A DNA stretch of 64,000 nucleotides from an uncultured Planctomycetaceae bacterium (GTDB taxonomy: Bacteria; Planctomycetota; Planctomycetia; Isosphaerales; Isosphaeraceae): assembly GCA_963833985.1 (NCBI GenBank), contig CAWIAD010000001.1:32001-96000 (forward strand). Reading direction: 5' to 3'. This document shows, one piece after another, positions 22,874 through 42,069 of this stretch; position 1 is the first letter of the stretch; each line of letters starts with the position of its first letter. Under the pieces are notes generated by a model. That model saw only the letters and a program-made list of their open reading frames with translations. It made no database searches and had not been told where the DNA came from. Position numbers and translations under genes: made by a program.

Positions 22874-23755
22874 ATGCACTTGAATCGCAGCGGGCACGCG
22901 CACGGCCGTACCAACCTGCGGCTGCTGGGGATCCTGTGGCTCTCGGTCTCCTGGCTTCAGGGCACGTTTGCCCAGGGGGTGGTTCGCGGTCCGGCCGCCG
23001 ATCAGCCGGTGGCCAGGAGAGACGCCAACTCCGCGCTGGCCCACGAGCAAATGCTCGCCAACGCGAAGAAAGGACGCATCGACGTCTATTTTGCCGGCGA
23101 CTCCATCACGCGCCGCTGGCGCGCCACCGACTACCCGGCTTTGCTGGCGAACTGGAACCACAATTTCTTCGGCTGGAACGCGGCCGACTTCGGCTGGGGC
23201 GGAGACACCGTCCAGAACATCCTCTGGCGATTGCACCATGGCGAGCTGGAGGGCGTCCACCCCAGGGTCATCGTCCTGCTGGCGGGAACCAATAACCTCG
23301 GAAACAGGCCCGCAAGTGAGGCCAGGGAAGACGAGGTCGTCCTCGGCATCAAGGCCGTGCTTCGCACCATGAGGGAATTGGCCCCCGACGCCACGATCAT
23401 CGTCATGGGGATCTTCCCGCGCAACGACGGGCCGCGGCCGACCGCGGTCATGCCGTCAATCCGCCGCATCAACGAACGCATCGCCAAAATGGCCGATGGC
23501 AAGACCGTCCGCTACCTGAACATCAACGACAGGCTGGCGGATGAGGATGGAAAACTCCTCGAGGGCATGACCGTGGACCGTCTACACCTCAGCCTCAAGG
23601 GTTACCAGATCTGGGCCGATGCCTTGAAGCCCCTGTTCACGGAACTGCTCGGCCCGCCGGCAAAGGAAGATCAGGCACCGCCGCCGACCGGCGACCCCAG
23701 TGCCGCCAGGAGGAAGCCTCCGGCGAAAAGTCCCGTCAGAACTCGAGGCGGATGA
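22874..23755 (+). CDS. GDSL/SGNH hydrolase
   Basis: GDSIT, GWGGD, GTNN, DRLHL blocks. Confidence 0.92.
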   Translation: MHLNRSGHAHGRTNLRLLGILWLSVSWLQGTFAQGVVRGPAADQPVARRDANSALAHEQMLANAKKGRIDVYFAGDSITRRWRATDYPALLANWNHNFFGWNAADFGWGGDTVQNILWRLHHGELEGVHPRVIVLLAGTNNLGNRPASEAREDEVVLGIKAVLRTMRELAPDATIIVMGIFPRNDGPRPTAVMPSIRRINERIAKMADGKTVRYLNINDRLADEDGKLLEGMTVDRLHLSLKGYQIWADALKPLFTELLGPPAKEDQAPPPTGDPSAARRKPPAKSPVRTRGG

Positions 23756-24096
23756 GCCTTCCGTTCGCGCACGGTACAGAACACTACCAGCTCCTGGTGC
23801 AGTTGCCGATCCGCCGGCCACGAGCGTGAAAGGTGATGCGGCACTGACAAGGACGCCCGGCCCTCTTCGTCCCTGTTTCGAGTGCAGCCAGACCACGGTG
23901 CGAAGCCCTCTCTTTTATCGGGCCGCGAGCTAGAGTTGATGATGAAGCGAATGCAGTCGCGACGCAGAGGGTACAGGCGGCGAGCGCCCGCGTTCGTCAA
24001 GGGAGCAGGGAGGAAACCACGGCAGATTCTTCGCGCAGGTCGGTGTGATGAGGCGCACCGTGGACCCCCAGCAACGGGCACTCCAGGAGGAAGTCC

Positions 24097-24804
24097 GTGA
24101 ACTTTTTCTATCTGGACGGTCCAGGGATCAGCGGGCTGTTCGAGCAGACCATCAACGACGTCGAAAACGAGTTCGATCGGCTTTACCGGGCCGATCCCAT
24201 CGGCAGCCTGCACGAGAAGACGGTCCTTGCCAGGCGACTGGGCGACCTGCTGGGAGTGGACCAGTTAACCACAGGCGGGACGTTCTGCCGGTCCAGGAAA
24301 TACATCGATGAGATCAAGGCCAAGTTGAGCGTCCAAAACAAGACGGTCCGGCTGCTCGACTATCAACGGGACGTCGAATCGGCAGCCAGGGCGTCGACGC
24401 TGGACCTGGCGATCCGCCGCTGGCGGTTCGGTGCGGCCAACCTGATTTGCGTGCACGAACACTTCCACATGCCGCAGTTCACCATGGGGCAGCGGAGCGA
24501 AGTCCTGGTCTACGCATCGGGCTTCTTGGAATTCGAGCTCGAGTTGCTGGTCGAAGCCGGCCTGGGCCGGAGGGGCTCAGCGATGGCCGCCACCGCGACC
24601 CTGACGCGCGAAAAACTGCTCGTGCTGATGTCGGCCAACCTCAGCAAGTTCCAGAACCTGCGGCAGGGGAAGATGACTCCCGAGAGCCCCGAAGCCCAGT
24701 ATTTTCACAGCTTCCAGGGAATGCGCGTGCCGCTCCACGTGCTGGGATCGCTCAACAAGTGCAAGGACGTATTCCGGATCAAGCCGCTGGCACTTTGGCG
24801 GTAG
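24097..24804 (+). CDS. Hypothetical protein
   Basis: 235-aa ORF with AGGAGG RBS and GTG start. N-terminal FFYLD...LFEQ and C-terminal IKPLAL loosely recall DUF6414-like proteins. Confidence 0.65.
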   Translation: MNFFYLDGPGISGLFEQTINDVENEFDRLYRADPIGSLHEKTVLARRLGDLLGVDQLTTGGTFCRSRKYIDEIKAKLSVQNKTVRLLDYQRDVESAARASTLDLAIRRWRFGAANLICVHEHFHMPQFTMGQRSEVLVYASGFLEFELELLVEAGLGRRGSAMAATATLTREKLLVLMSANLSKFQNLRQGKMTPESPEAQYFHSFQGMRVPLHVLGSLNKCKDVFRIKPLALWR

Positions 24805-26042
24805 CTCCGGCACTTTGGCGGGACTGCCTCAGGCAGGCCTCATATGCCGCGGGAAAAGGTGAGAGCGCGCGCTCGAAGATGCCCAGAGTGTACGCGATCG
24901 CCAGACCGTAATTGGTCACCGGCACGCCGACTGACCGGAAGCGCTCCAGCCGCGAGACCATTTCACGGCGGTTTTGAACGCAGGCACCGCAATGGATGAC
25001 GAGCTGGTAAGGGCTGAGATCTGGAGGCAGATCGTGACCCGAATAGTGTTCAAACTGAAGCGCTCCGCCGACGTATTGCGTGAGCCAGCGCGGGATCTTC
25101 ACCCGCCCGATGTCGTCGGCGATGGGATGGTGGCTGCACGCCTCGCACACGAGGACGCGATTCCCCGGCCGCAGCCGTTCAATGGCCGTGGCTCCCTGCG
25201 CCTGGAGCACCAGGTCTCCCTTCTGGCGCGAACAGAATTGAAAATGAGGTCAGGGGCACGCCCGGCGGCGTATCGGCCGACACCTTGAGAAATGCCTGCG
25301 AATCCGTAACCACCAGCGCGGGCGGCTCCCGGAGCTGAGCCAGCGCGCCTGCCAGCTCGCGCTCCTTCACCACCAGGGCCAAGGCGTCGTTGTCCAGCAA
25401 GTCACGGATGGTTTGCACCTGGGGCAGGATGAGGCGGCCCTTCGGTGCTTCCTTGTCGATCGGCGTCACCAGCACGACAAGTGCGCCCGGCGGAACCAGG
25501 TCGCCGACCAGCGGCGGTGGGGCCAGAAACTCCTCAGGCGCCACGCGGATCAGCGCCTCCCTCAGCTCGGCGAGGCCCTCGCGACGCGTTGCCGAGGTGC
25601 ACACCGTGCGCACTCCAGCCGACCCCAGGCGGGCGATCTCAGCCTGGCTCGGACGACCCAGGTCCGCCTTGTTGAAGGCAACGACCACCGGGGTCCGACG
25701 GTCCTGAAACTGGGTCAGAAGGCCTTCCTCGAACACGCCCCAGTCGTCCGCGGCCGCGACCAGAACCGCCACGTCGATCCGCTCGAACACGCGGCGAGTG
25801 CGGTGCACGCGCTGCTCTCCCAGATCCCCGACGTCATCGATGCCGGCCGTGTCGATGAACAGCACGGGACCCAGGGGCAATAGCTCCATGGGCTTCTCCA
25901 CCGGATCGGTCGTGGTGCCGGCCACGGCCGAGACAAGCGATACGTCCTGGCGCGAAAGCGCATTCAGAAGCGCGCTCTTGCCGACGTTGCGCCGGCCGAA
26001 AAGCCCGATGTGCAGGCGGTTGGCGTTGGGAGTTCGGAGCAT
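24779..26042 (-). CDS. hydF: [FeFe]-hydrogenase H-cluster maturation GTPase (frameshift ~25226)
   Basis: GRRNVGKS, GTTTDPV, DTAG, NKAD, APKGRLILPQVQ, TDSQAF. C-terminal EACSHH...HCGAC...TNYG in the second frame. Confidence 0.95.
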
Positions 26043-26086
26043 CTCTGGTGAGTCCTGGTGCGCCCGCTACGGCACGAACGCAGATG

Positions 26087-27499
26087 TCAAGGGGTGCCGC
26101 GCCCCGGGAGCTGGGAACCGAGCCTCATTACGGCTTGCGGGCTGACGTACTCGTCGAATTCCGCGCCCGAGAGCAGTCCCTGCTCAACCACCACGGATCG
26201 CAGGTTCCGTCCCTGCTGGCGGGCCAGCAGCGCAACGCCCTGCGCGGCTTCGTAGCCGAGCCGGCCGACCAGGGCCGTGGCCGTTGCCGTGGCTCCCTCA
26301 AGGTGCGAGCGGCAACGCGCCCGGTCCGCCGTGATGCCGTCGATGCAGCGGTCGGCCAGCAAGCTCGATGACCGGGTCAGCAGTTCCACCGCGGTCAGCA
26401 GGCTGTCGGCCACGAGCGGCAGCAGGTGGTTCAGCTCCAGGTTGCCCTGTGCGCAGGCCAGAAAGACCGTCTGGTCGCAGGCCGACGCGGCCCAGGCCGC
26501 CTGGATCACTCCCTCGGGAATGACCGGATTGACCTTTCCGGGCATGAGCGTCGAGCCCACCTGCACTGCCGGCAGGAGAATCTCGCCCAGGCCGGCATCG
26601 GGTCCGGATGCCAGCAGCCGCAGGTCGTTGGACACCTTGATCAGGCTGGCGGCGAGGGCACGGATGATGCCCGAAGCCTCCACGATCGCGTCCAGGTTCT
26701 GGGTGGCGTCAAGCAGGTTCTCGGCGCGGGCCAGGCCGAAACCGGTGATCTCCCGGAGATGCTCGATCACGCGGAAGATATAGGACCTTGGCGCTCCCAG
26801 GCCGGTCCCCACGGCGGTTCCTCCCAGGTTCACGACGCGCAGCCGTTCCGTGCACTTGGCGACACGCCAGCGATCTCGGGCGAACGCGTCGGCAAACGCG
26901 CCGAAGGCCCGGCCCAGGGTGATCGGCACGGCGTCCTGAAGCTGTGTGCGGGCCAGCTTGACGACGTCCGCGAACTCCTGCTCCTTGCGCTGGCACGATT
27001 CGGTCAGCCGCGTGACCGCGGATTCCAGGTTCCTGAGCTGATCCAGGGCGGCCACCCTGAGCGCCGTGGGGTAGGTGTCGTTCGTGGACTGGTGCAGGTT
27101 GACCTGCGCGGGGCCAAGATGCTTGTGATCGCCGGGGGCAAGACCCGCGATCTGTAGCGCGCGGTTGGCGAGCACTTCATTGACGTTCATGTTCGTGGAG
27201 GTGCCGGCTCCTCCCTGAAGCGCGTCGACGATCACATGGGCGTCCAGCGCGCCGGACATCATCTCCCGGCACGCGGCTTCCAGAGGGCGGGTCATCGCCG
27301 CGGGCAGGTAGCCCAGCTCGGCGTTGGTGCGCGCGCACGCGAGCTTCACGGCGCCGAAGCCGCGCACCAGGGAGCGATGCACGGGCCGGCCGGAAAGGGG
27401 AAAGTTCTCGACCGCCCGGCAGGTGGCGATGCCGTAGAGCGCCTCGGCGGGGACCTCCCGCATACCCAGCATGTCGCATTCCATCCGGACTGCCGTCAT
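26087..27499 (-). CDS. aspA: Aspartate ammonia-lyase (fumarase/aspartase superfamily)
   Basis: QGGAGTSTNMNVNEV, QSTND, RTQLQDAVP, GSTLMPGKVNPV. Confidence 0.88.
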   Translation of the reverse strand: MTAVRMECDMLGMREVPAEALYGIATCRAVENFPLSGRPVHRSLVRGFGAVKLACARTNAELGYLPAAMTRPLEAACREMMSGALDAHVIVDALQGGAGTSTNMNVNEVLANRALQIAGLAPGDHKHLGPAQVNLHQSTNDTYPTALRVAALDQLRNLESAVTRLTESCQRKEQEFADVVKLARTQLQDAVPITLGRAFGAFADAFARDRWRVAKCTERLRVVNLGGTAVGTGLGAPRSYIFRVIEHLREITGFGLARAENLLDATQNLDAIVEASGIIRALAASLIKVSNDLRLLASGPDAGLGEILLPAVQVGSTLMPGKVNPVIPEGVIQAAWAASACDQTVFLACAQGNLELNHLLPLVADSLLTAVELLTRSSSLLADRCIDGITADRARCRSHLEGATATATALVGRLGYEAAQGVALLARQQGRNLRSVVVEQGLLSGAEFDEYVSPQAVMRLGSQLPGRGTP

Positions 27500-27542
27500 G
27501 GTCTGGCCTCGCAGTGCAAGACGCGCGGCGCTTGCTCTGGCG

Positions 27543-29055
27543 CTAGAAGAAGAGATCGCGCTCGTCCGTGTTGCGGATCCGCGCCAGCCGGCTGCCGAGT
27601 CTCGCGTTTCAGCTCGCCGTCGGGCAGGGCGTTCAGCTCGCGCGTGAGCATTTGCTCGCCGGCCGCTCGGGTGGACGGGCTCGCGTAATCGACCAGGTAT
27701 TCCAGCAGCGTGCTCAGCGCGTTGGGCGTACACAGCCGCTCGATGAAGCCGGGGATGGCGAACTCCATGAAATGTTCGCCCGTCCGGCCCAGACGATAGC
27801 AGGCCGTGCAAAAGCTGGGGATGTAGTCGTCGTCGAGCAGCTGGCGGACGACCTCGTCCAGCGTGCGGACGTCGCCGAGCTCGAACTGCTCGCGCTCGCG
27901 GACCTGCTGCTGGGAGTCTCCGGCCTCGGTGTAGCCGCCAAGCTCGATGCGGCTGCCGGCGTCGATCTGGGAGACGCCAAAGCCCATGATCTCGTTCCGC
28001 AGCGCGGCCGGCTCACGGGCCGTAAGGATCATGCCCGTGTACGGAACGCTGAGCCGCAGGATCGCGACCACGCGCTTGAAGTCCTCGTCGGAGACCAGAC
28101 AGCGGCTGTTGGAGGCAACCCCTGAGGCCGGGCGCAGCCGTGGAAAGCTGATCGTGTGCGGGCCGCAGTTGTAGCGTTCCTGGAGGAAGCGGGCATGCGC
28201 CACCAGGCCGAGGACCTCGAACCGCCAGTCATACAGTCCGAAGAGCGCGCCCAAGCCCACGTCGTCCAGCCCCGCTTCCATGGCGCGCGAGAGGGCGTCG
28301 AGCCGCCACAGGTAGTCGGCCTTGCGCGTGCCGGCGGCGTGGACGGCCGCGAAAGTGGCGTGGTGGTAGGTCTCCTGGAAGACCTGGTAGGTGCCAATTC
28401 CGGCTTCCTTCACCACGCGGTAGCCCGCGTGGTCAAGCGGAGCGGCGTTGATGTTGACGCGGCGGATCTCCCCCTTCCCCCGCGTCGTTCCGTAAACGAC
28501 GCGTACCGTCTCGGCGATGAACGCGGGGTCGTACTTCGGGTGCTCTCCGAAGACGAGGATCAGCCGCTTGTGGCCGCTGTCTTCCACGGCCTCAACCTGC
28601 GCACGGACCTGGCCCAGGTCAAGCGTGCGGCGGACCGCGTCGATGTTGGACCTGCGGAACCCACAATAGTCGCAATCGTTCACGCAGTAATTGCCGATGT
28701 AGAGCGGCGCGAAGAGAACGATCCGGCGCCCGTACACGTCGCGCTTGAGCTGCCGTGCGGCGTCGAAGATCTCGGCAATGAGGTCCGGGTCGGTCGCGCT
28801 TAGAAGCACCGCGGTCTCGGCGAGCGTGAGCGGCTGCTTCTCCATGCTCCGGGCGATCACTTCGCGCACCTGCCGACGATCCGCCTTGTCGCTCAGCAAG
28901 CCGGTGAGTTCATCGTCGTTGATGAAGTCAACGGCGTGGTCGCTCAGAGCAGCGAGGCTCGGCAGGCCCCGGCCAGCGCGGGGGCCCGGTCGGGCGGCCG
29001 GCCCAGCAGCCGGCGGTAATGGTAAGGGGTTCACAATCGGAAGTTGGTAGTTCAT
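27543..29055 (-). CDS. hydG: [FeFe]-hydrogenase maturation radical SAM protein (frameshift ~27590)
   Basis: CVNDCDYC radical SAM motif, GPHTISFPR, C-terminal CTAC-x22-C cluster motif. The canonical ERDLFF end is in an adjacent frame, stopping at 27543. Confidence 0.95.
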
Positions 29056-30144
29056 GTCTGGATACCTAGATTGTTCTGAACCTGGGCTCTTGCTCGGTCC
29101 TGGTAGTTAGGCGAATGGCCGTGGCCGCGACCGACCACACGGCCGATCGACCGGATGCGCCCGTGCAGGCAGCCGTGACAGGCCTGAGCCGAGTCGTCGA
29201 CGCATGCCTTGTTGGGATAGATCTCGTACGCTTTGCGATAGACCATGGGAGTGACGTTCGGCATGACCACGTTTGCGCCGCACTGGAGACCGCGCTCGCG
29301 GCCGCTCGCCGGGTTGAGTGTGGCTAATGCCGTGGTGCTGGGGAGGTTCGCGCGGGGACAGACCAGTCGAGCCAGCGCGATCGTCTTCAAGGTCGTGGTC
29401 TCATCGGCGGGCACCTGGCGGTGCGTCGGGAGTACCCAGCGGCGCACGTCCCGTCCCATGGGGGTCTCGGGGTGTGGGAGATAAGGACCCACCCCGATCA
29501 TGTCCAGGTCGAGGGCCCGCATCAGCTCCAGGTCCGCGGCCAGATCGTCCCAGGACTGACCCGGAATGCCGACCATGACGCCGCTTCCGACCTCATAGCC
29601 CAGGTCGCGTAGGCCCATCAGCAGAGAGATCCGGCTGGCTGGCTGGCTCGCGTGCGGGGGGTGAATCGCCTGGAAGAGCGTGGGATTGGAGGTCTCGAAC
29701 CGCAGCAGGTAGCGATCGGCCCCGGCCTGGCGCCACGCCGCCAGCTCATCGATCCGCCGTTCTCCCAGGCTGAGTGTGACGGCCAGCGGAGTGTGCTCCT
29801 TGATCTCCCGGATGCGATTCGCGACCCAGCGCATATCGAGTCCCGGATCCTCACCCGCCTGGAGCACGACAGTTCCGTAGCCGAGTGAGGCGGCCGTCGC
29901 GGCGGATTGCATCACCTCGGCGGCCGTCATCCGGTACCGCCCGAGCGTGCGGTTGCCGGCGCAGGCCGCAGTAGACGCAGGCGCGCCGGCAGTGATTGGA
30001 GAGCTCGACCAGCCCGCGGAGGTGAACGGCCTGGCCTACGTGCTCGCAACGGACGACGTCGGCCCGGGCGAAAAGCTGGTTCTGCCGCCCTGGATCGGGG
30101 CTCGTCAGAAGCTCGAGAACCTCGGTTCGAGAGATGACGTCCAT
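29052..30144 (-). CDS. hydE: [FeFe]-hydrogenase maturation radical SAM protein (frameshift ~29960)
   Basis: VHLRGLVELSNHCRRACVYCGLR, then RYLLRFETSN, MIGVGPYLPHPETP, GANVVMPN, YEIYPNK. ATGA overlap with hydG. Confidence 0.93.
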
Positions 30145-30183
30145 TGCGCCTTCCAGCTTCGGGCCCGGGTGCGGGAATGCGGG

Positions 30184-31920
30184 TCAGTGCCGACCGTCGG
30201 TTTTGTGCGACAGGTTCCGTTCCAGGATCTCGACGACGCGCTCGCCCAGACCTTCGACCTCGGTGACGACCGCCGAGAAAGCCTCCTGAAGCTTCTTCGA
30301 GCACGGCTCGATGACTTCCGCTTCCTTTCGTATGCCACCGGCCAGGTCGCGCACGGCGCTGCTGACGACGGAAAACGCAGCCCCGGCCTGGCCGGCGCGT
30401 GCCGCCTCGATCCGAGCGTTCAGGGCCACAATGTGGGTCTGTCGCGAGAGATCGACGATCGAATCGGCCACCCGTCCCAGCTCGTTGGTCGACTGCGATG
30501 CATCGGTGACCTTGGCGACCGTGCCCTCGAAGTTGGCGATCACTTCCTTCAGTGCGGCCGCGCGCCGCTCCTGGTCTCGATTGATCGTTCCCAGGAAATA
30601 GACACAGTGTTCGCGGCGATTCAGCCCGTTGTGCACGGCGATCGCCATCGCCTCGCACGATCCGTAGCCACAGGCGCCGCAGTTGAGCAGGTCTTCCGGC
30701 CCAAACTTGCTCATGCTTTGGTAGACGGCCTGTAGCTCGGACTGGCTGGGCTTCTTGAGCTTCACCGAGGCCGATCGATCGACGTACGAGCGCTGGAAGC
30801 CCGCGGGATCATCACGCTCACGCAGCAGGCTGGCCACTGCCGCCTGGCAATCCTCATCGCTGGCCTTTTCTCCGGCGTACCGCTCCCGCGCCTCCCTCGC
30901 GCGCTGAGTGACGTAGCTTTCGATTCGATCGATGCCGACCGTGCGTGCCGGCGTGCCCGTACCACCGTTGCACCCTTTCTCGCAACTCAGGCAATCCACC
31001 AGCAGCGGAGCGATGCCCTCGCGGACCGCGCATGGCAGATCGTCAAGATAATGATAGACTCCAGGAGTGCCCTCGATCTTGCGGGTGGCGCGGGAGGCAT
31101 CGCGGCTCCAGCGCTCGAGCGTGTCACGCAGCCCACCGGGCGACGAGAAGAGCACGGCTCGCTCCGCCGGCGGACCGTCGAAGTCGGTGGCCGGGTAGCG
31201 CGAAAGCTCCACCCCGCGCGCCGTGAAGTGCTCTGCGAGCGACCTCATGGTCACGTTGTAATCGCCCAGACCGGTCTCGTCGTACTCTCGCCGCTTGGCG
31301 ATGCACGGAGAGATGACCGCGATTCTGTGACCGAGGTACTGCGGGTACTGGTTTCGCACCATCCGCATGGAGTGCTGCATCGGGCTGCCGGCCGGTGCCA
31401 GGTAAGGCAGTAGCTCGGGCCGGTACAGCTCGATGTACGTGACGATCGCCGGGCAGGGCTGCGCCACCACCGTCGTGGCGTGGCTCTCCGAGATGTGCCG
31501 CAAGTAGCTCTGGACAGTCAGCTCGGCTCCGAAGCTGACGTCGAAGATCGCGCTGACTCCGGACTGCTTGAGCCAGCCGTTGAAGTTGAGGTACTGGTGC
31601 GGGAATGCGGCCGCCACCGCCGGCGCAACCACGGCAATCATCCGTACGCCAGCTTGCAGGTCCCTCCAGAACGCCTCAAAGTCATCCATCGGAAAGTGCG
31701 CACCGTGCTGGCATGCATCAATGCAACTGCCGCAGCCGATGCAAAGCTCAGGGTTGATTTCGACTGCATCGCCGGACGCCACGTTGCAGTACTTGACGGG
31801 GCAGGCGGTAATACAGGCATGGCAATTGACGCACCGCTCCGCGTCGACCCCCACCACGGCAGTCAACCCCTGCTGGGTAAGGTGCGGGCTGCTCGATTGG
31901 GATGCGATCGTTGATGACAT
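30184..31920 (-). CDS. Sensory-type [FeFe]-hydrogenase fused to a methyl-accepting chemotaxis signalling domain (group C, chemotaxis-linked)
   Basis: 2x[4Fe-4S] motifs (CVNCHACITACP, CIGCGSCIDAC); H-cluster motifs AQPCPA, SPCIAKRRE, CLSCEKGCNGG; Cx2Cx4Cx16C FeS motif; C-terminal QTHIVALNARIEAARAG MCP tip. Confidence 0.9.
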   Translation of the reverse strand: MSSTIASQSSSPHLTQQGLTAVVGVDAERCVNCHACITACPVKYCNVASGDAVEINPELCIGCGSCIDACQHGAHFPMDDFEAFWRDLQAGVRMIAVVAPAVAAAFPHQYLNFNGWLKQSGVSAIFDVSFGAELTVQSYLRHISESHATTVVAQPCPAIVTYIELYRPELLPYLAPAGSPMQHSMRMVRNQYPQYLGHRIAVISPCIAKRREYDETGLGDYNVTMRSLAEHFTARGVELSRYPATDFDGPPAERAVLFSSPGGLRDTLERWSRDASRATRKIEGTPGVYHYLDDLPCAVREGIAPLLVDCLSCEKGCNGGTGTPARTVGIDRIESYVTQRAREARERYAGEKASDEDCQAAVASLLRERDDPAGFQRSYVDRSASVKLKKPSQSELQAVYQSMSKFGPEDLLNCGACGYGSCEAMAIAVHNGLNRREHCVYFLGTINRDQERRAAALKEVIANFEGTVAKVTDASQSTNELGRVADSIVDLSRQTHIVALNARIEAARAGQAGAAFSVVSSAVRDLAGGIRKEAEVIEPCSKKLQEAFSAVVTEVEGLGERVVEILERNLSHKTDGRH

Positions 31921-32036
31921 GTTCGCGGCTCCGCTTGCTTGATCCAGCGCGCTGCAACTTCGGGGCGTCAGGCTGGATTGAGGAGAACAGTCATACCAAC
32001 CGTAGAACAATCTCCTGATGACGGGTCAGGGGAACG

Positions 32037-32052
32037 CCTGATGCTCATCAGG
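32037..32052. promoter_or_regulatory. Candidate operator palindrome in the hyd/che divergent intergenic region
   Basis: CCTGATG-CT-CATCAGG perfect 7-bp inverted repeat, next to an AT-rich tract (32053-32087). Confidence 0.35.
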
Positions 32053-32603
32053 AAAAACCTTACATATGCAGACAACGTAATATATGAGGGAATCCCAGGA
32101 CGGGCTGCCAGCGCGGCTCGCGGGCGCGAGACGACAGGGCGGCGAGCATGCGACGCGGTGCACGCGGGCCCGCGGAGGAGTTCTTTGGTTCGTTTGAAGC
32201 CCTCAGTTCGCGGGATCACAAGTCGTACGCCCTGCTTACCTTCGGCGGTCTCGGGCGGTTCGTGGACGAACCAGGTCCGGTCCGGGCATACGCGCCGGTC
32301 ACGTTCCGGACGCCGACTATAAAGTGCGGATGGGGACCACCAATTCGGGACCGGCCTGGGCATTGAGGTTGTCGCTGGCGAGCCGCGGTACTGGCGGCAG
32401 TGGCTCACGCATGATGGATCTGGGCGGCATCACCGGCGCCGACCTGTTCTATGGTTGATTCGTGACGATCAGGGCAAGAATCGCCCCGGTGCATGTCACT
32501 GGTCCCATGCACGGTGAAGTGCTCGGCCGGGTCGGCAACCTGTTCAATCCTCCAACGGAGTGCTCGCTCCGGGGGCAACCGCCGCGCGCGGAGAATTCCT
32601 CTG

Positions 32604-35243
32604 ATGAATGATCTAGAAATTGCGATCCGAGAGTTTCTCGCTGAGAGCTACGAGAACCTGGATCAGCTCGAACACGACCTGGTGGCCATCGAGGCGGATT
32701 CGCGCAGTCGAGAGACGGTCGACCGGATCTTCCGTACCGTTCATTCCATCAAAGGCGCCTGCGGGTTCCTGGCGTTTCCCAGGCTGGAAGCCGTCGCTCA
32801 TGCTGGTGAGGGACTCCTGTGCCGATTGCGCGAGGGTGAGCTCGACTGGAGCCCCTCGATCACCACGTCTCTGCTCGCGCTGGCCGACGCCATGCGGATC
32901 ATCCTGCGCCACATCGAAGAGAATGGGGCCGAGGGAACCGAGGACCACACGGTGCTGATCGAGCGCCTCATGGCGTTGCAGGCGCAGGAAGGTCAGGAGC
33001 CGGCAGTCTTCGGCGCGGGCTCGGAGCCACCGCGTGCGGCTTCCGAGAGCAAGACCCCGGCGCAAGAAGGATCTCGCCCCGTGGCCTCCGCTGCCCGGAT
33101 CTCCGATCGCGCTCCTACCCCCGTGTACGATGAGTGGAACGGCGAGACCGAGGCCGAAAAGCCGAATGGAAGTCCCGCCGGCGGGATCTCCAGCGGCAAC
33201 ATCCGTGTGGACGTAGGGCTGCTGGACAAGCTGATGAACCTCGTGGGCGAGCTGGTGCTGGCCCGCAACCAGATCCTTCAGCACGCCAGCACACGCGAGG
33301 ACGCCTCGCTGCTGGGCACCTCGCAACGGCTCAACCTGATCACCACCGAGTTGCAGGAAGGGGTGATGAAGACCCGGATGCAGCCCATCGGCAACGTCTG
33401 GAACAAGTTTCCGCGCGTGGTCCGCGACCTGGCGCTGGAGTGCGCCAAGCAGGTGCGCGTGGAGCTGGAAGGAAGCGAGACCGAGCTCGACCGGACGATC
33501 ATCGAGGCGATCAAGGACCCGCTGACGCACGTGGTGCGGAACGCCGTCGACCACGGCATCGAGCCCCCCGAGGAACGGCGTCGCAAGGGGAAGCCGGCGA
33601 CCGGTTGCCTGCGGATGCGGGCTTTCCACGAGAGCGGGCAAGTCAACATCGAGATCTCGGACGACGGCGCAGGGCTGGACGTCGAGCGGATCACCCGCAG
33701 CGCCCTCGACCGCGGGCTGATCTCGCGTGAGCATGCGGCTCGGATGGGCGATCACGATCTGATGCAGCTTATCTTCCTGCCCGGATTCAGCACCGCCGAG
33801 CGGATCACCAGGATTTCCGGCCGGGGCGTCGGCATGGACGTGGTCAAGACGAACATCGAGAAGATCGGCGGCACGATCGACATCCAGAGCACCGTCGGCC
33901 AGGGTACCACCCTGAAAATCAAGATCCCGCTCACGCTGGCGATCATCCCGGCGCTCATCGTCAGCACCAGTGGCGACCGTTTCGCGATACCGCAGGTCAG
34001 CCTCCTGGAGCTGGTTCGACTTGAAGGCGAGCAGGCGCAGCGCGGCATCGAGATGATCCACGGTGCGCCGATCTTCCGGCTCCGCGGCAGCCTGCTTCCC
34101 CTGGTGAGCCTGGATCACCTGCTCGGCTCGAACGACTCGAAACCCTCGGGGGTGAATTGGCACGACCACCACGACTCCCGGAACGTCGACTTCGCCCGCC
34201 TCCGCGAGATGGATCTACAATGGAAGACGCGGCTGGCCCGCGTGCTCAAGGGCGAGGAAGCGCTGGACGCCGAACGGCTGGCTTCGGCCGAGGAGTGCGA
34301 GCTGGGCCTGTGGCTGAAGAGCGAGGGTATTCGCGAGTTCGCGGGGCGTGACGAATTTGTACGCCTGATCCAGGTGCACAAGCAACTGCATGCCGCTGTG
34401 AAGGAGGTTGTGACGCTTCACAGCTCCGGCAGGCGCAGCGAGGCGCAGGCCGCACTTGGAGCGGTGGAGGCCAGGTCGCTTGAACTGGCAGGCGGGCTGA
34501 CGGGCGTCGAGCGCGTGCTCGAGGCGACCAACCTGGTGAACATCGTTGTGCTCCAGGCGGACGGCCGGCGCTTCGGGCTGGTGGTCGAGGGAATCAGCGA
34601 CACCGAGGAAATCGTGGTCAAGCCGCTGGGCAAACAGCTCAAGGGCGTGTCGCTCTTCGCCGGCGCCACGATCATGGGTGACGGTCGCGTGAGCCTGATC
34701 CTCGATGTGGCGGGCATCGCCCAGAAAGCGGGCGTGGCCTGCGGCACCGTGGAACGCCTGGCGCTCGAGGAGAGCTCTGCCAGGCAAGGGCGGCAGGACG
34801 AGCGATCCGCCTATCTGTTGCTGCGCCACGGCAGCGACAGCCGGGTGGCGATTCCGCTCTCTCTGGTGGCCCGGCTGGAGGAGATTCCCTGCGCGGCGGT
34901 GGAGCATTCGGGAAACCGCGAGGTCGTTCAGTACCGGAACCAGATCATGCCGCTGGTGCGGCTCTCGCAGGTGCTGCAACAGCGCGGCTACGAAGAAGCC
35001 CAGGAATCCGACCCGATGCAGGTGGTGGTCTACACGCAAAACGGCCAGAGCGTTGGCCTGGTTGTCGATACCATCCTCGACATTGTCGAGGACGCAATCC
35101 AGGTGCGGCCCACCCGTCGCGGGCAGGGTCTGGTCGGGTCGGCGGTGATCCAGCAGCGTGTCACCGACGTGGTCGACGTCCCGGGGCTGATTCGATCGGT
35201 CGATCCCGATCTGGTGACCAGTGCGATGGGAGTGGGAGACTGA
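32604..35243 (+). CDS. cheA: Chemotaxis histidine kinase with two CheW-like domains and an inserted CZB-like domain
   Basis: Hpt IFRTVHSIKG, IRVDV...LMNLVGELV, HVVRNAVDHGIE, SGRGVGMDVV, PLTLAII, plus a second CheW-like domain at the C-terminus. Confidence 0.96.
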   Translation: MNDLEIAIREFLAESYENLDQLEHDLVAIEADSRSRETVDRIFRTVHSIKGACGFLAFPRLEAVAHAGEGLLCRLREGELDWSPSITTSLLALADAMRIILRHIEENGAEGTEDHTVLIERLMALQAQEGQEPAVFGAGSEPPRAASESKTPAQEGSRPVASAARISDRAPTPVYDEWNGETEAEKPNGSPAGGISSGNIRVDVGLLDKLMNLVGELVLARNQILQHASTREDASLLGTSQRLNLITTELQEGVMKTRMQPIGNVWNKFPRVVRDLALECAKQVRVELEGSETELDRTIIEAIKDPLTHVVRNAVDHGIEPPEERRRKGKPATGCLRMRAFHESGQVNIEISDDGAGLDVERITRSALDRGLISREHAARMGDHDLMQLIFLPGFSTAERITRISGRGVGMDVVKTNIEKIGGTIDIQSTVGQGTTLKIKIPLTLAIIPALIVSTSGDRFAIPQVSLLELVRLEGEQAQRGIEMIHGAPIFRLRGSLLPLVSLDHLLGSNDSKPSGVNWHDHHDSRNVDFARLREMDLQWKTRLARVLKGEEALDAERLASAEECELGLWLKSEGIREFAGRDEFVRLIQVHKQLHAAVKEVVTLHSSGRRSEAQAALGAVEARSLELAGGLTGVERVLEATNLVNIVVLQADGRRFGLVVEGISDTEEIVVKPLGKQLKGVSLFAGATIMGDGRVSLILDVAGIAQKAGVACGTVERLALEESSARQGRQDERSAYLLLRHGSDSRVAIPLSLVARLEEIPCAAVEHSGNREVVQYRNQIMPLVRLSQVLQQRGYEEAQESDPMQVVVYTQNGQSVGLVVDTILDIVEDAIQVRPTRRGQGLVGSAVIQQRVTDVVDVPGLIRSVDPDLVTSAMGVGD

Positions 35244-35246
35244 GCC

Positions 35247-35696
35247 ATGGCCAACCTGCGACAGTATTGCACCTTCTCAGTTGCCGACCTGTACCTGGCC
35301 ATCGACGTGCTCGAGGTCCAGGAGGTGATCCGCTACCAGGAGATGACCCGCGTTCCCACGGCGCCTCGGGTTGTACGCGGGCTCATCAACCTGCGTGGGC
35401 AGATCGTCACCGCCATTGACCTCCGCCGCCGCCTGGACCTGCCTCCCCCGGCCGACGACCTGCGGCCCATGAACGTGGTGATCCGCACCGACGACGGAGC
35501 GGTCAGCTTGCTGGTGGACGAGATCGGCGACGTGCTCGAGCTGGACGACCGCGAGTTCGATCCGCCACCCGAAACCATACCGGCCGTGATCCGCGATGTC
35601 GTCGTGGGGATCCACCGGCTCACGGACCGACTGTTGATCGTCCTTCATCCCGATAAGGTCGTGAGCCTGATCGGGGCAACCTCTTCACTCGCCTGA
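35247..35696 (+). CDS. cheW: Chemotaxis coupling protein
   Basis: VQEVI...TRVP...GLINLRGQIVTAIDLR...LLVDEIGDV. Confidence 0.95.
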   Translation: MANLRQYCTFSVADLYLAIDVLEVQEVIRYQEMTRVPTAPRVVRGLINLRGQIVTAIDLRRRLDLPPPADDLRPMNVVIRTDDGAVSLLVDEIGDVLELDDREFDPPPETIPAVIRDVVVGIHRLTDRLLIVLHPDKVVSLIGATSSLA

Positions 35697-35732
35697 AAGG
35701 ATCGCTGGTCGCACCCGACCGGGAGAACCGAA

Positions 35733-37844
35733 ATGAGAAGCAATGGTCATCACAAGGCGGGCAACGGCAGTGCGCAAGCCGCGGCGTTGCTTCCTCAGCC
35801 CGAGCTCGAAAGCCATCAGCCGGCAGTCCGCAGAGCCGTCCCACGCCAGGCTGACGACCTGGCCCGGCTGCAAAGCCAGCTCGAAGAGGCGAATGAGAAC
35901 CGGCATGCGATCGTGTCGCTGATCGTCGCGCTGGAGGGCGCGAACTCGGTGCACGAAGCGATCACCGCCGCGCTGGACACCGTGCGCGAGGCCTTCGGTT
36001 GGGCCTATGGTTCATACTGGGCGCTCGACGCGAAGACCAACGCCCTCGGGTTCCTGCTCGAAAGCGGGTCGGTCAACGACGAGTTCCGGCGGGTCACGCT
36101 GGAAGCGCGCTTCCGCGAGGGCGAAGGTCTCTCGGGCCGCGCCTGGAAAGCGCGTGACCTGGTGTTCGTGCCCGACCTCGGTCAGGTGCGCGATTGCTGC
36201 CGGGCCCCCGTGGCCCAGCGCGCCGGTGTCAAGTCCGGCGTTTGCTTCCCCATCATGGACGACGGCAAGGTGCTTGGCACGATGGACTTCTTCTCGATGG
36301 AAACGCTCACGCTCTCGGAGCAGCGGTTGGAGCAGCTGCGCTACGTGGGCAGGATGGTTTCCACGACCCTGCGTGCCCTGCGGTCCGCCGAGAAGGCCAA
36401 GGAAATCGCCCAGAACGCGCAGGCCGTCAATCACGTGCTGGAGCGCATCGGCAGCGTCCAGAGCGTCGGCGAGGCGATCCAGGTTGCGCTCGATACCGTC
36501 CGCGACGAGTTCGGCTGGGCTTATGGCTCGTACTGGGTCCTCGACACGGCCGAGAACGCCCTCAAGTTCTCGGTCGAATCCGGTGTGGTGGACACCGAGT
36601 TCCGTCGGGTCACGCTGGAAGCGCGCTTCCGCGAGGGCGAAGGTCTCTCGGGCCGCGCCTGGAAAGCGCGTGACCTGGTGTTCGTGCCCGACCTCGGCCA
36701 GGTGCGCGATTGCTGCCGGGCCCCCGTGGCCCAGCGCGCCGGCGTCAAGTCCGGCGTCTGCCTGCCGATCACCGACGGCGGCCAGGTCACGGGCACGATG
36801 GACTTCTTCTCGATGGAGGCGCTCGACCTCAGCCAGGAGCGGATCGACGCGGTGCGGAACGTCGGGCGGCTGGTCTCCAGCGCCATCGAGACGATGAGAC
36901 GCCAGGAGCGGATGAACGAGATGGCCGAAACCCTGCGCGGGGTTCTGAGCCGCGTCAGCGAGCACTCGCATCAGATCGCAGACTCCGCGCAGGAGCTCAC
37001 CGCGTCCAGCCAGCAGATGAGCTCGGCGGCCGATGAGACTTCGGCACAGGCGAATACGGTTTCGGCGGCGGCCGAGCAGGTCAGCGCCAACGTTCAGACG
37101 GTGGCCACCGGCGTGGAGGAGATGAGCGCCAGCATCAAGGAGATTGCCCGCAGCGCGGCGGAGGCAGCCAAGGTGGCCAATATCGGTGTGGGTGTGGCCG
37201 AGAAGACCAACACCACCGTCGGCCAGCTCGGAGAATCGAGTGCGGAGATCGGCAAGGTCATCAAGGTCATCACGTCGATCGCCGGCCAGACGAACCTGCT
37301 GGCGCTGAACGCAACCATCGAGGCGGCACGCGCCGGCGAGGCAGGCAAGGGGTTCGCGGTCGTCGCCAACGAGGTGAAGGAGCTGGCCAAGGAGACCGCA
37401 AAGGCCACCGAGGACATCAGCCAGAAGATCGAGGCGATTCAGCGAGACACCCGCGAGTCCGTGGCGGCCATCGACCAGATCGGCCAGATCGTCAAGCAGA
37501 TCAACGAGATCCAGGGGACGATCGCCAGCGCCGTGGAAGAGCAGACGGCCACGACCAACGAGATCGGCCGGAACATCGCGGAGGCGGCCAAGGGCTCCAA
37601 CGAGATCGCCCGGAACATCACATCGGTGGCGCAGGCGGCGAAATCGACGACGGTGGTGGCCAACAACACGCTGCGGTCCGCGGGCGAGTTCGCCCACGTG
37701 GCCACCGAGCTGACGGCCCTGGTCGGTACCATCCAGCTCGATGACGAAGGGACCGGCGCTGCCAGGCACAACCAGTCGAGGACCGCGAGCAAGCCGGCGG
37801 GTGCGGCTCACGCCGCCGGTCCGCCGCCGACCGTCCGCCGCTGA
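35733..37844 (+). CDS. Soluble methyl-accepting chemotaxis protein with two GAF domains
   Basis: No transmembrane segment; duplicated GAF (GEGLSGRAW...GVCFP/GVCLP); canonical [37 protein letters not shown]. Confidence 0.93.
36081..36761 (+). repeat. Near-identical 165-bp direct repeat (36081-36245 and 36597-36761) in the two GAF domains
   Basis: Manual alignment gives 4 mismatches in 165 nt, all synonymous; period 516 bp. Confidence 0.9.
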
Positions 37845-37851
37845 CGACCCT

Positions 37852-37893
37852 CCGGGTCCGCACGCGGCCGTGTCCAGGGTCGTGCGGACCCGG
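37852..37893 (+). other. Intra-operon stem-loop between the MCP gene and cheY
   Basis: CCGGGTCCGCACG / CGTGCGGACCCGG perfect 13-bp inverted repeat, 16-nt loop, no U-tract. Confidence 0.6.
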
Positions 37894-37921
37894 TGACTTC
37901 CCGTTCCCAGAGGAGGATGCT

Positions 37922-38293
37922 TTGAAAGCACTCGTGATCGACGATTCCAGGGCGATGAGGACGATCATCGGCCAGATACTCAGAAGCCTTGGCTACGAGG
38001 TGGCCGACGCCGGCAACGGCCGCGAGGGCCTGGAGCGCGTGCGTAGCCAGGGCCCGCCCGACCTGATCCTCGTGGACTGGAACATGCCCGAGATGAACGG
38101 CCTGGAGTTCGTACGGAACCTCCGCAGCCAGCGTGAGTATGACCACGTCCGTGTGATGATGGTGACCACCGAGACCGAGATGAAGCGCATGTCCGAGGCG
38201 CTCGACCAGGGCGTCAACGAGTACGTGATGAAGCCGTTCACCCGGGATGTGATCCTTCAAAAACTGGAACAGATGGAATCGGCCAATGTCTGA
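37922..38293 (+). CDS. cheY: Chemotaxis response regulator
   Basis: Single receiver domain (VIDDS, VDWNMPEMNG, MVTT, KPF); GAGGAGG RBS with TTG start; lies in the che operon. Confidence 0.9.
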   Translation: MKALVIDDSRAMRTIIGQILRSLGYEVADAGNGREGLERVRSQGPPDLILVDWNMPEMNGLEFVRNLRSQREYDHVRVMMVTTETEMKRMSEALDQGVNEYVMKPFTRDVILQKLEQMESANV

Positions 38294-38417
38294 GTGGCCG
38301 CGGCCGCCCCGCAAGAAGCATGCGAAGAATGTCCACGAACTCAGGGAATGAGTGCGAAATCGCGATTTCAGGGACGATCCCAGCACACCCCGCCAGGCAA
38401 GACACAGGGCCGTGCTC

Positions 38418-39550
38418 ATGAATGTGATCAACAAGATCCGAGTTCTCATTATTGACGACTCCGTCGTCGTGCGCAGGATGCTTTCCGGCGTGATCTCGGC
38501 CGATCCCCAGCTTGAGGTCACAGGCACCGCCGCCAACGGCCGCATCGGTCTTTCCAGGATCCATCAGTCCAGCCCCGACATCGTGATCATGGACGTAGAG
38601 ATGCCCGAGATGTGCGGCCTCGAGGCACTCCGGGAGATTCGACGGTCCTGGCCGCGCCTGCCGGTCATCATGTTCAGCTCGCTCACCCGCTGGGGCGCGA
38701 CGGTCACCCTGGACGCCCTGGAACTGGGCGCCAACGATTACGTCACCAAGCCGGCTCAGGTGGAAAGCATCGATCACGCCGAACGGCAAATTCGCGACGA
38801 CCTGATTCCCAAGATCAAGGCCCTGTGCCAGCGGAACCACGCCCGCACCGGGACGCCGGATGCCAGCCCGGCCATTACGCCCCGCGCATCCACAGCGCGC
38901 CGCGACCGGCGGCTCCCGTCGCACGCAGGATCGAGGTCGTCGCGATCGGCACCTCCACGGGAGGGCCCAATGCGCTGGCGATGGTCATTCCCGCGCTGCC
39001 CGCGGGCTTCCCCGTCCCCGTGCTCATCGTCCAGCACATGCCTCCTTTCTTCACTGCGGCACTTGCCGACCGGCTGGCCTCCAAGTCGGCCATCGCGGTC
39101 AAGGAAGCAGCCACGGGCGACCGGCTCATGCCGGGGCACGCCTACATCGCGCCCGGCGATCATCATATGGTGGTCCGCAGATCAGAGGGCGGGGTGGGCA
39201 TCGAGCTGAACCAGGAGTCTCGCGAGAACTCCTGCCGGCCCTCGGTCGATGTCCTCTTCCGCTCGGTCGCCGCAGTCTATGGCGGGGCGACGCTGGCCGT
39301 GGTGATGACCGGCATGGGGCAGGACGGCCTGCTCGGGTGCGAGCTGCTCCATAAATCCGGCGCCGCGATTTATGTCCAGGATGAGCCGACGAGCGTGGTG
39401 TGGGGCATGCCCGGTTTCATCGCTCGTGCCGGACTCGCCGAGCAGGTCCTCCCTGTTGACCGCATCGGTCCGGCAATCAGTGGTCGCGTGGGCTTCAAAG
39501 CACCTGAGTCACGGTCTGCAAGAGCGGAGAACCTGTCTTCATGTGGCTGA
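38418..39550 (+). CDS. cheB: Chemotaxis methylesterase (receiver + esterase; frameshift in linker ~38900)
   Basis: Receiver IIDDS...MDVEMP; esterase GTSTGGP, VQHMP, RPSVDVLF, TGMGQDG, VWGMP in the second frame. Confidence 0.93.
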
Positions 39551-40410
39551 ACACGGCCGACTTCAATTACGTCCGGATGCTTGTCAAGCAGCACTCCGCC
39601 ATCGCGCTGGATGAGAGCAAGGCCTACCTGGCGGAGACCAGGCTGCTCGGCCTGGCTCAGCGCGAGGGGATCCCCTCGCTGGCGGAGCTGGTCGCGCGGG
39701 TTCGCGCCGACCGTGGCGATGTGCTGCGGGGCAAGGTCGTCGAGGCGATGACCACGAACGAGACATCGTTCTTCCGTGACCTGCTGCCATTTGAAATGCT
39801 TCAGCGCGCGTTGCTGCCGGAGCTGATCGCCTGCCGCGCCCGCCAGCAGACCCTGCGGATCTGGAGCGCGGCTTGCTCCACGGGCCAGGAGCCCTACAGT
39901 ATCGCCATGCTCATCCGCGACAAGTTCCCCGGTCTGGCCTCGTGGCAGGTGAAGATTCTGGCTACCGATCTGTCTTCCGAGGTCTTGAACCGGGCCCGGG
40001 AGGGACGATTCAGCCAGCTCGAGGTGAACCGCGGCGTGCCCGCTCACCTGCTGGTGCGGCACTTCCGGAGGCAAGGACTCGACTGGTACATCAGCGACGA
40101 GATCCGGCGGATGATCGACTTTCAGGTACTGAACCTGGTGGGGACATGGCCTTCCATGCCGTCCATGGATCTCGTGCTGCTCCGTAACGTGCTCATTTAC
40201 TTCGACGCTGATTCAAAGCGGGAGGTATTTCAGAGAATTGCCCGGACACTTGCACCGGATGGCTTTCTCGTTCTGGGCAGCTCCGAGACCACGCTGTTCG
40301 ACAATAGCTCCTTCGAGCGCGTCGACCTCGACCGCTCATGCGCTTTCCAGTTCAAGAGCCACACCGCCTATGCTGGGCCGCACCTGCGCAGCTGGAACTG
40401 CGTGCAATGA
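39541..40410 (+). CDS. cheR: Chemotaxis methyltransferase
   Basis: TTNETSFFRD, IWSAACSTGQEPYSIAM, ATDLS, RNVLIYF. Confidence 0.96.
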   Translation: MWLNTADFNYVRMLVKQHSAIALDESKAYLAETRLLGLAQREGIPSLAELVARVRADRGDVLRGKVVEAMTTNETSFFRDLLPFEMLQRALLPELIACRARQQTLRIWSAACSTGQEPYSIAMLIRDKFPGLASWQVKILATDLSSEVLNRAREGRFSQLEVNRGVPAHLLVRHFRRQGLDWYISDEIRRMIDFQVLNLVGTWPSMPSMDLVLLRNVLIYFDADSKREVFQRIARTLAPDGFLVLGSSETTLFDNSSFERVDLDRSCAFQFKSHTAYAGPHLRSWNCVQ

Positions 40411-40553
40411 TTCGCCTGTGAACACAGATCCACGGACCAAAAACGACTACCGAATGGGCCTCGCGCAGGAGTGCGTTGACGAACCAGACTCATCCGCAGA
40501 TTGGTTGATCGTGCCACCACTGGCCGCCAGGGTGTGCCCGCTGGAGATTGGAT

Positions 40554-41033
40554 ATGCTGACTGAAACCCCATGCATCGAACTCACCGAGAATACAACTCA
40601 CCTTCGGACCGCCATCGAATCCGTGTGGTCCACCATGCTCGGCATCGAGGTTGAGCCGGGCGAGGCGATGCTGCTTGACCGCGGCGAACCCGACTACATG
40701 ACCGGCTGCATCCAGATCACCGGTGCCTGGCAGGGGGCGGTCACCGTCGATTGCTCGATCGGCCTGGCCCGGCAAATCGCGGCCATCATGTTCGGCGTGG
40801 AGGTCTACGAAACCACGCCGGATCAGGTCAGCGACGCGCTGGGTGAGTTCACGAACATCATCAGCGGCAATCTCAAGTCATTTCTTCCCGAGCCCAGCCA
40901 TCTTTCGCTCCCCTCCGTCGCCGAGGGGACCGATTGCTACTTCCGCGTCATCGGCACACGGGTCCTCGCCCAGTTCTGCTTCGCGCACAAGGGTCAGCCG
41001 TTCCAGGTGACCATCGTCCAGGGGCTCAAGTGA
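40554..41033 (+). CDS. cheX: CheX-like CheY-P phosphatase
   Basis: ITGAWQG, DALGEFTNIISGNLK (ExxN motif), LSLPSV. Confidence 0.85.
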   Translation: MLTETPCIELTENTTHLRTAIESVWSTMLGIEVEPGEAMLLDRGEPDYMTGCIQITGAWQGAVTVDCSIGLARQIAAIMFGVEVYETTPDQVSDALGEFTNIISGNLKSFLPEPSHLSLPSVAEGTDCYFRVIGTRVLAQFCFAHKGQPFQVTIVQGLK

Positions 41034-41690
41034 AGACCGCTGCTTGCGGCCGGGTGGGAAGCCGGATGCGGAAGCAGGTTCGCAGTCGCGGCTGACTCTC
41101 CACGTCGATCCGGCCTCCATGCTTGGCGATGATGCCATGACACGTTGCCAGCCGCAGACCTTGGCTGCTCGTTGGCGAGGATGAGCTTCTCCGTTTGTTG
41201 TCTCCGCTCCTGCTCGCTGCGCACGTTGTCGCCGCAGTTCTTATCGCAGCCGCAGAGTGTCCCAGAAAAGGGCTCAGAAGGAGGACGGATCACTCCACCC
41301 GGATTTCCCCAAGGTTTCCCGCTGGAGGCAGTCGGGACAGATCTTGCTGCCCTGGCAGCCAGGAACCTCGATGGTTTTGCCACAGTGCTTGCCGGTCGGT
41401 TCGGCCATCAGGAATCAAACTGGGGACGCCGCGATGCGGCACCCTCCGCACGGCCCGTGGAATCTGTCGGGCGTGAGTCACCTTCTGCTCGATGGTAACG
41501 GAGTTCAGGCGATGCGATTTGAAAGTTCGGAGAAGATACACGGAACACACCAGCGGACCCGGTGCCGGCAACCCGACGGATTCGCACAGCGCATGCCAAT
41601 TTCGGTTGACGCCCTCCGCGCCAGCGGCTCTGCTGGACGGTATGTCGAGTCGCCGGTGTCGCTTCCGGTCCATGCGTCCAGGGAGTTGTC

Positions 41691-42035: not shown

Positions 42036-42069
42036 TCGTAGAGAAGGCGCAGGGGCAGTGGGCGGAATC

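Follow-up and report, generated by a model that had tools for sequence, protein, structure and literature searches.

A candidate H2-sensing hydrogenase-chemoreceptor with its own maturase genes beside a che operon in a planctomycete genome

Hydrogenase-linked sensors and the fusion protein of the planctomycete locus

Among the [FeFe] hydrogenases, group C2 of HydDB, given in Table 1 of its description as 'Chemotactic (putative)', holds soluble proteins in which an H-domain with a sensory-type pocket and a C-terminal iron-sulfur (FeS) motif is fused to the signalling domain of a methyl-accepting chemotaxis protein (MCP), and for which a role in H2 sensing through chemotaxis proteins has been predicted (PMC5037454). 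Among tested systems, the PAS-linked HydS enzymes and the [NiFe] sensor HoxBC-HoxJ come closest; TmHydS and TamHydS have been studied biochemically, whereas no such MCP-linked case was found in the literature. The locus described here lies in a window of 64,000 nucleotides (nt), C1:32001-96000 of a planctomycete genome (referred to as G000; 10.16 Mb in two contigs, 65% GC, 96% complete), in which a hydrogenase-MCP fusion gene and the genes hydE, hydG, aspA and hydF are read from the minus strand and face, across a short junction, a che operon on the plus strand. The genes, their order and their coordinates (24779-41033), as given in a preliminary description of this DNA, were confirmed by profile searches against Pfam and NCBIfam, on which all gene assignments below are based.

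The fusion protein of 578 amino acids (aa) (30184..31920, minus strand; the longest open reading frame (ORF) reaches 32010) contains two Fer4 domains, an Fe_hyd_lg_C domain matched at positions 2-244 of 245 (Pfam, E = 2.4e-27), an FeS domain (PF04060, residues 442-470) and an MCPsignal domain. Its H-cluster cysteines C156, C206, C313 and C317 are invariant among 20 homologues and fall in L1, L2 and L3 when aligned with solved hydrogenases, and the motifs QPCP, SPCxAKxRE, DCLxCxxGC (DCLxCxxGCNGG) and Cx2Cx4Cx16C are conserved without change across the same set. At the positions where CpI has C299, M353 and M497, the alignment places Pro, Ser and Leu (within QPCP, SPC and DCL, respectively); in sensory enzymes these three residues have been described as altered, with Pro in about 10% at C299 and Ser in about 32% at M353 (PMC10055695). 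The cysteines of the last motif (C414, C417, C422 and C439, all invariant in the 20 homologues) directly precede a coiled coil. The Cx2Cx4Cx16C motif marks [FeFe] groups C and D, a statement that PMC13104023 backs. The NCBIfam models for group A and B hydrogenases remained below their cut-offs on the fusion (TIGR04105: 135.6 vs 450). Altogether, the proposal that this is a sensor-type hydrogenase fusion is borne out by the H-cluster pocket, which is of the sensory type, and by its C-terminal Cx2Cx4Cx16C motif, and the receptor has, as far as its sequence tells, every testable feature of HydDB group C2.

The signalling part of the protein is a minimal one. MCPsignal was matched at 57.9 bits (cut-off 34.6), over profile positions 18-116 of 172 only; the tip aligns with those of solved MCPs, and the arms of the hairpin measure about 65-70 residues each, which corresponds to roughly 20 heptads in total by manual count on the alignment. 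Standard MCPs reportedly fall into heptad classes from 24H to 44H, a scheme said to be that of Alexander and Zhulin from 2007. Judged by their length, the arms appear too short for the usual methylation helices. The short form of the hairpin occurs in half of the aligned homologues (10/20), and the alignment of the fusion gene with that of the related locus L094 has no internal gaps over 1737 nt. When a dimer of the MCP tip was modelled in complex with the CheW encoded next to it, a score of 0.69 was obtained, vs 0.18 for the best of three controls; the runs agreed in at least 90% of contacts, with a partner predicted local distance difference test (pLDDT) value of at least 84, and of 78 solved complexes 51 came up to the mark applied to such models, as did 2 of 108 mismatched pairs. 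Binding of CheW by the fusion, which the preliminary description presupposed, is thus predicted for the tip and the neighbouring CheW, although the model shows likeness that may derive from the MCP-CheW complexes already solved, and it cannot pick among CheW paralogues.

The likeness to the PAS-linked enzymes TmHydS and TamHydS lies in the altered C299, M353 and M497 positions (PMC10055695) and in the arrangement of N-terminal FeS clusters together with an atypical C-terminal [4Fe-4S] cluster adjoining the signalling domain (PMC8163306; PMC13104023), whereas the output is an MCP tip here and a PAS domain in those proteins, and the residue at the C299 position is Ala in TmHydS and Pro in the fusion. 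HoxBC, which acts with the kinase HoxJ in Ralstonia eutropha, is likewise a cytoplasmic H2-sensing hydrogenase coupled to a histidine-kinase pathway, but its metal site and fold are unrelated, it forms a separate complex with no fusion, and its output is transcription, not the CheA pathway (PMC6978683). Within group C2 itself, the MCP part is reduced to the minimal hairpin in the fusion and its near clade, in contrast to the HAMP domain and full MCP of the Riflebacteria proteins; furthermore, the fusion travels with hydE-hydG-aspA-hydF, an association found among 160 loci likewise only in L014, L094 and L098. A record labelled Ca. Rifleibacterium (L063:5983-15246) contains an operon with the order cheX-cheY-cheA-hydMCP-cheW-cheB-cheR, which resembles the present locus in its che gene set, cheX included, in a CheA of the same well-supported clade and in having a hydrogenase-MCP as sensor. 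In that operon, however, the hydrogenase-MCP has 934 aa, among them HAMP_2 and a long MCP part, is the only receptor encoded there and has no maturase genes next to it, whereas the fusion described here is short and lies outside the operon on the opposite strand, and the operon has a GAF-MCP of its own.

The family to which the fusion belongs is large: of 7999 proteins scored, 3546 matched at E<=1e-10; PF02906 and PF00015 were both present in 118 of the 120 best family matches, and at least 593 loci were found in species-representative genomes of Planctomycetota, Bacteroidota, Acidobacteriota, Spirochaetota, Fibrobacterota and others. The receptor type is one that is already catalogued and widespread. 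The earlier remark that planctomycetes are not usually linked to [FeFe] enzymes does not hold, as the same fusion occurs in many metagenome-assembled genomes labelled Planctomycetota, and in a survey of Planctomycetota from anaerobic digesters [FeFe] hydrogenases are called common (PMC11929135). What is particular to the present case is the mobile cassette that carries the maturases, the position of the fusion as sole H-cluster client, the minimal MCP hairpin and the lineage-specific docking beside a che operon.

The maturase cassette and its frame breaks

The fusion gene heads a cassette of about 7 kb, hydMCP-hydE-hydG-aspA-hydF, all on the minus strand. It comprises hydE, for a radical SAM maturase (29052..30144; TIGR03956 in two pieces, at positions 10-70 and 75-336 of 340, with 254.5 and 44.4 bits as the higher and the lower of the two scores), hydG, for a second radical SAM maturase (27543..29055; TIGR03955, 475.2 bits vs a cut-off of 312), an aspA-like gene for an aspartate ammonia-lyase (26087..27499; NF008909, 573.8 bits vs a cut-off of 510) and hydF, for the H-cluster maturation GTPase (24779..26042, in the two pieces 24779-25222 and 25227-26042; TIGR03918 at positions 2-270 with 356.8 bits and 273-392 with 167.9 bits, of 392). 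HydE, HydG and HydF are equivalog-level NCBIfam matches over their full length. In a profile search of the whole genome a single Fe_hyd_lg_C protein was detected, namely the fusion, and hydE, hydG and hydF were each present in one copy, which indicates that the maturases serve the sensor alone. That the maturases are packaged with the sensor, as had been proposed, is further supported by the recurrence of the gene order in relatives.

For the comparisons, congeneric genomes are designated G004, G007, G008 and G011 and homologue loci by L-numbers, L011 being the locus of G007 and L013 that of G011. The cassette order is kept in G007, L094 and L014/L098 (the latter two look like one organism), and in all of them aspA holds the same slot between hydG and hydF. 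The closest relative found is L094, with 76% nt identity over 7.0 kb and with intact genes for hydE (373 aa) and hydF (419 aa). In the other loci analysed, the only tblastn matches were one resembling hydE (L069) and a weak one resembling hydG (L030).

Several observations point to mobility. The genes flanking the 7.5-kb cassette of G007 have orthologues that are adjacent on the other contig of G000, 275 bp apart, so that an empty site (C2:1727022-1727296) stands where G007 has the cassette; therefore, the block has moved. The sensor core was detected in 2 of 13 congeners. In G011 (L013:13842-16508) the sensor core, at 65% identity, is fused to HisKA-HATPase-REC with no MCP; such swapping of the output by a sensor core would be as expected of a signalling input. 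This kinase fusion of G011 has a CHAT/TPR protein as its neighbour, and its contig showed no maturases. A repeat search found no flanking direct or inverted repeats at the cassette borders, and its only matches were a duplication of GAF domains and the likeness between the two MCP tips. In L094 a DUF4058 gene adjoins the cassette (L094:150-806); this family is multi-copy in G000, at many sites (among them C2:424119, C2:4264877 and C1:23650-24156), with one copy about 8 kb before the window.

Four genes of the locus, hydE, hydF, hydG at its 3' end and cheB, are frame-broken in the assembly. Compared with L094, 2 nt are missing from a GCGCGG run in hydF (near 25222-25227) and 2 nt from a CGCGCC run in hydE (near 29960, just past CxxxCxxC). 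In hydG the break lies near 27597 and shifts the final ~19 residues out of frame; the conserved C-terminus ending in RIRNTDERDLFF and the true stop (TAG, 27545-27543) are read only in another frame, this C-terminus being in frame in L094 and L098. In cheB the break falls in the linker (38850-38930) and leaves the receiver and the methylesterase in different frames. The alternative that cheB consists of two genuine genes, one for the receiver and one for the esterase, was rejected on the basis of the split in the linker and of the cheB of G008, which is a single frame of 392 aa.

The background of such breaks was estimated with intact ORFs from 400 kb of G004 as reference, which gave 68 putative orthologues and 31,549 aa compared; the frames of protein-level high-scoring segment pairs (HSPs) were used because the DNA is too divergent for indel calls (66-85% identity, with 71% GC in G004 vs 65%). 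Frame changes were found in G000 for 10 of the 68 orthologues, including carB and methylmalonyl-CoA mutase, and GCGC lies within 12 nt of 9 of these 10 junctions, vs 2.8 expected (P ~6e-5). Examples of broken orthologue sites are C2:874585, C2:671735 and C2:738587. Moreover, at least 5 of about 150 protein-kinase domains listed are split between frames. Both halves of each broken gene of the locus give strong, complete family matches, and no stops or further lesions were seen. Since there is about one break per 10 kb, core metabolism is affected and the breaks are linked to a motif, they are probably systematic assembly indels and not signs of decay. An enrichment of breaks in the locus was considered and set aside, as the 3 HSP-detectable breaks in 16.25 kb do not differ significantly from the ~1.7 expected (10 per 94.6 kb). 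Elsewhere in the window, an aldo-keto reductase gene (59400-59600) breaks in a C6 run. In G007 (L011:6400-10600), hydG, aspA and hydF each align in two or three frames and hydE and the fusion are intact; this assembly (84% complete, 110 contigs) is probably also prone to indels.

The che operon and its CheA lineage

By Pfam the Che set comprises a CheA that has Hpt, dimerisation, ATPase and CheW-like domains, together with CheW, MCP, CheY, CheB and CheR. The operon is read from the plus strand and consists of cheA (32604..35243, the longest ORF starting at 32493 but 32604 being the likelier start; Hpt, H-kinase_dim, HATPase_c, CZB and CheW), cheW (35247..35696; Pfam CheW, 1-135 of 138), the operon's own receptor gene, encoding a soluble GAF-GAF-MCP protein (35733..37844; two GAF_2 domains and MCPsignal 3-169 of 172), cheY (37922..38293; Response_reg, 2-110 of 111), cheB (~38415..39550; Response_reg and, in another frame, CheB_methylest 1-174 of 174), cheR (39541..40410; CheR_N and CheR) and cheX, of a family of CheY-P phosphatases (40548..41033; Pfam CheX, E = 2.5e-20). 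Between the fusion gene and cheA lies the divergent junction (31921..32603), for which the preliminary description had given about 680 bp and which measures 683 bp with starts at 31920 and 32604, the former being that of the gene-caller and the latter taken from homology with G008. The junction is without homology to relatives by blastn, and a promoter scan of it returned no sigma-70-like site and one weak terminator-like hairpin. No Rfam family reached its gathering score in 23000-43000.

G008 has this operon too, with unchanged gene order and 48-75% aa identity (CheA 64%, CheW 75%, GAF-MCP 57%, CheY 62%), and in a search of 10 congeners for this CheA a match at E<=1e-100 was obtained in G008 only. 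A chemoreceptor zinc-binding domain (CZB) is located at residues 575-640 of CheA, in or beside the P5 region. The G008 orthologue (L174:10223-12838) shares this insertion, but the Riflebacteria-type CheA from the same clade lacks it. In the GAF-MCP, the pair of GAF domains is a recent tandem duplication, in which 300 nt (35954-36253 and 36470-36769) are 85% identical.

The lineage of the CheA was examined in a tree of the CheA core with 22 rows, a sample that was picked by way of the fusion gene. The window CheA and its G008 orthologue clade with eight CheAs encoded next to hydrogenase-MCPs (support 95/98), of which five are closely related Riflebacteria-type proteins, one is from Fibrobacterota and two are unlabelled; this clade includes none of the four CheA paralogues of G000. 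With sampling of this kind, the tree points to recurrence of this lineage beside hydrogenase-MCPs and not to enrichment. On this point the suggestion that the che operon relays the signal finds favourable evidence, in that this CheA lineage adjoins hydrogenase-MCPs in other phyla too.

The planctomycete origin of the window, suggested earlier, is backed by a protein with DUF1559 and N_methyl domains (52765-54063) and by the nearest genome matches, which bear the submitter labels Gemmataceae and Isosphaeraceae. An ORF with a PemK/MazF-like toxin domain is also present in the window (46806-47252; Pfam E = 5.7e-12).

A proposed H2-sensing pathway and its alternatives

G000 encodes a Hox-type bidirectional hydrogenase and a group-1-like [NiFe] hydrogenase, as well as two subunits I of haem-copper oxidases; with these enzymes, a respiring organism could plausibly use H2 as a cue. 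The two [NiFe] loci are found at C1:1252311-1256104 and C2:4729178-4734512. In one of them the two subunit genes, small and large, adjoin a formate/nitrite-transporter-like gene; the other, of Hox type, has a NuoF-like gene and encodes HoxU (410 bits; cut-off 333), both the small and the large subunit, and a maturation protease.

On balance, we lean towards the view that the fusion is a cytoplasmic chemoreceptor with a slow, sensory-type [FeFe]-hydrogenase as input, that the adjacent che operon is its likeliest relay and that adaptation goes through the GAF-MCP. The adjacent operon is preferred as partner because the lineage of its CheA has, elsewhere, hydrogenase-MCPs in or beside the operon. 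In the proposed pathway, oxidation of H2 at the H-cluster would lead to reduction of an FeS relay that includes the C-terminal cluster, the redox change would shift the tip of the coiled coil and CheA would be modulated through CheW. CheY and CheX would relay and reset the signal, respectively, and CheB and CheR would adapt the co-encoded GAF-MCP, not the hairpin.

A number of observations weigh against this proposal, and several of them would be equally well accommodated if the two modules were neighbours by chance. In that case the cassette would have been inserted into a variable region in which a che operon happens to lie, the receptor would signal through another of the five che systems of the genome or through none in particular, and the adjacent operon would work only with its GAF-MCP. 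Conservation of the hyd/che adjacency, the lack of which was among the refuting outcomes listed in the preliminary description, was not found: G007, L094 and L014/L098 have the cassette without che genes within the available flanks (1.5 kb upstream of the fusion in L094), and in G008, which has the che operon and is 92% complete, no match to the hydrogenase-MCP was obtained (its che contig ends 1.9 kb beyond cheA). By blastn, homology to L094 stops at 31869 and homology to the che operon of G008 begins at 32584, that is, at both edges of the junction. As the modules are separable in relatives and homology stops at both edges, they are independent of each other and their juxtaposition is specific to this genome. 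More broadly in the family, the fusion gene has cheA no more than 10 kb away in 12 of 80 genome loci and in 3 of 80 metagenome loci; where each flank is 5 kb or longer, cheA was found within this distance in 8 of 41 from genomes, and any che gene in 4 and cheA in 2 of 19 from metagenomes, so that only about a fifth of the well-flanked homologues have che genes nearby. The genome contains four further CheA loci, five in all, and the hairpin is much shorter than the GAF-MCP, which makes it uncertain whether the two receptors co-assemble in one array. With regard to the output, Flagellin_N, FliM and Flg_bb_rod were not found in a profile search of the 96%-complete genome. FliG_C and FHIPEP (FlhA-like) genes lie 4 kb apart (C2:5212353-5218841), a pair that may belong to a flagellar set, reduced or very divergent, or else to another export apparatus, and three PilT-family genes were above the cut-off. 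In addition, no experiments on any MCP-linked hydrogenase were found in the literature. Mere neighbourhood does not readily account for the recurrence of this CheA lineage beside hydrogenase-MCPs in four other lineages, with the G000 paralogues outside the clade, nor for the complex model, which passes with the adjacent CheW, though without discriminating among CheW paralogues. Taking both sides together, we consider an accidental arrangement possible but rather unlikely.

Two further explanations concern the sensor itself. If the breaks in hydE, hydF, hydG and cheB were real, no H-cluster could be made and the locus would be a recent pseudogene cluster. Four breaks in 16 kb would fit such decay, as would the presence of three of the four in the 7-kb cassette (vs ~0.75 expected from the background), a count that also tells against a working sensor, together with the frame changes in hydG, aspA and hydF of G007 and the patchy occurrence of the cassette in the genus. 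Breaks are found, however, in conserved orthologues throughout the genome, carB among them, and they cluster at GCGC motifs; the domain matches are complete on both sides of each break, with no stops or further lesions, and the G007 genome is itself an incomplete assembly in many contigs. Decay of the locus thus appears improbable. It is also conceivable that the receptor responds to something other than H2, either to the cellular redox state through its ferredoxin-like clusters or to O2 or CO through damage or inhibition of the H-cluster, and serves a behaviour of the energy- or aerotaxis type. The two N-terminal Fer4 clusters and the C-terminal cluster would suit such a function, the two haem-copper oxidases imply that the host meets O2, and an unusual reactivity to hydrogenase inhibitors has been described for a putative sensory enzyme (PMC8163306). 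On the other hand, a dedicated HydE/G/F set is kept solely for the fusion, the H-cluster ligands are invariant across the family and the [NiFe] hydrogenases of the host make H2 a meaningful cue, and for these reasons sensing of another signal is regarded as quite improbable.

Returning to H2 sensing as the preferred function, a wider and more tentative interpretation can be offered, which we hold to be possible though doubtful. The block hydMCP-hydE-hydG-aspA-hydF could be a self-sufficient, horizontally mobile 'plug-in' H2 sensor that brings its own H-cluster assembly to hosts without a catalytic [FeFe] hydrogenase and whose output can be swapped, an MCP tip being used here and a histidine kinase in a congener. 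In the present host, which can respire aerobically, metabolises H2 with [NiFe] enzymes and possibly has no flagella, it would dock on a CheA lineage that has repeatedly partnered hydrogenase receptors, and it may steer a non-flagellar output.

For the study of such receptors the locus has practical merits, since a stretch of 16 kb holds the sensor, all maturases and a candidate relay, the fusion is the sole H-cluster protein in the cell, so that a maturase knock-out would give a clean sensor-null strain, and the same sensor core occurs with a kinase output in natural variants, which allows comparison. These are conveniences and not a new principle, and the Riflebacteria-type operons, which have the receptor among their che genes, would serve at least equally well as a test case. 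A tractable MCP-linked hydrogenase would help to show whether bacteria steer by H2.

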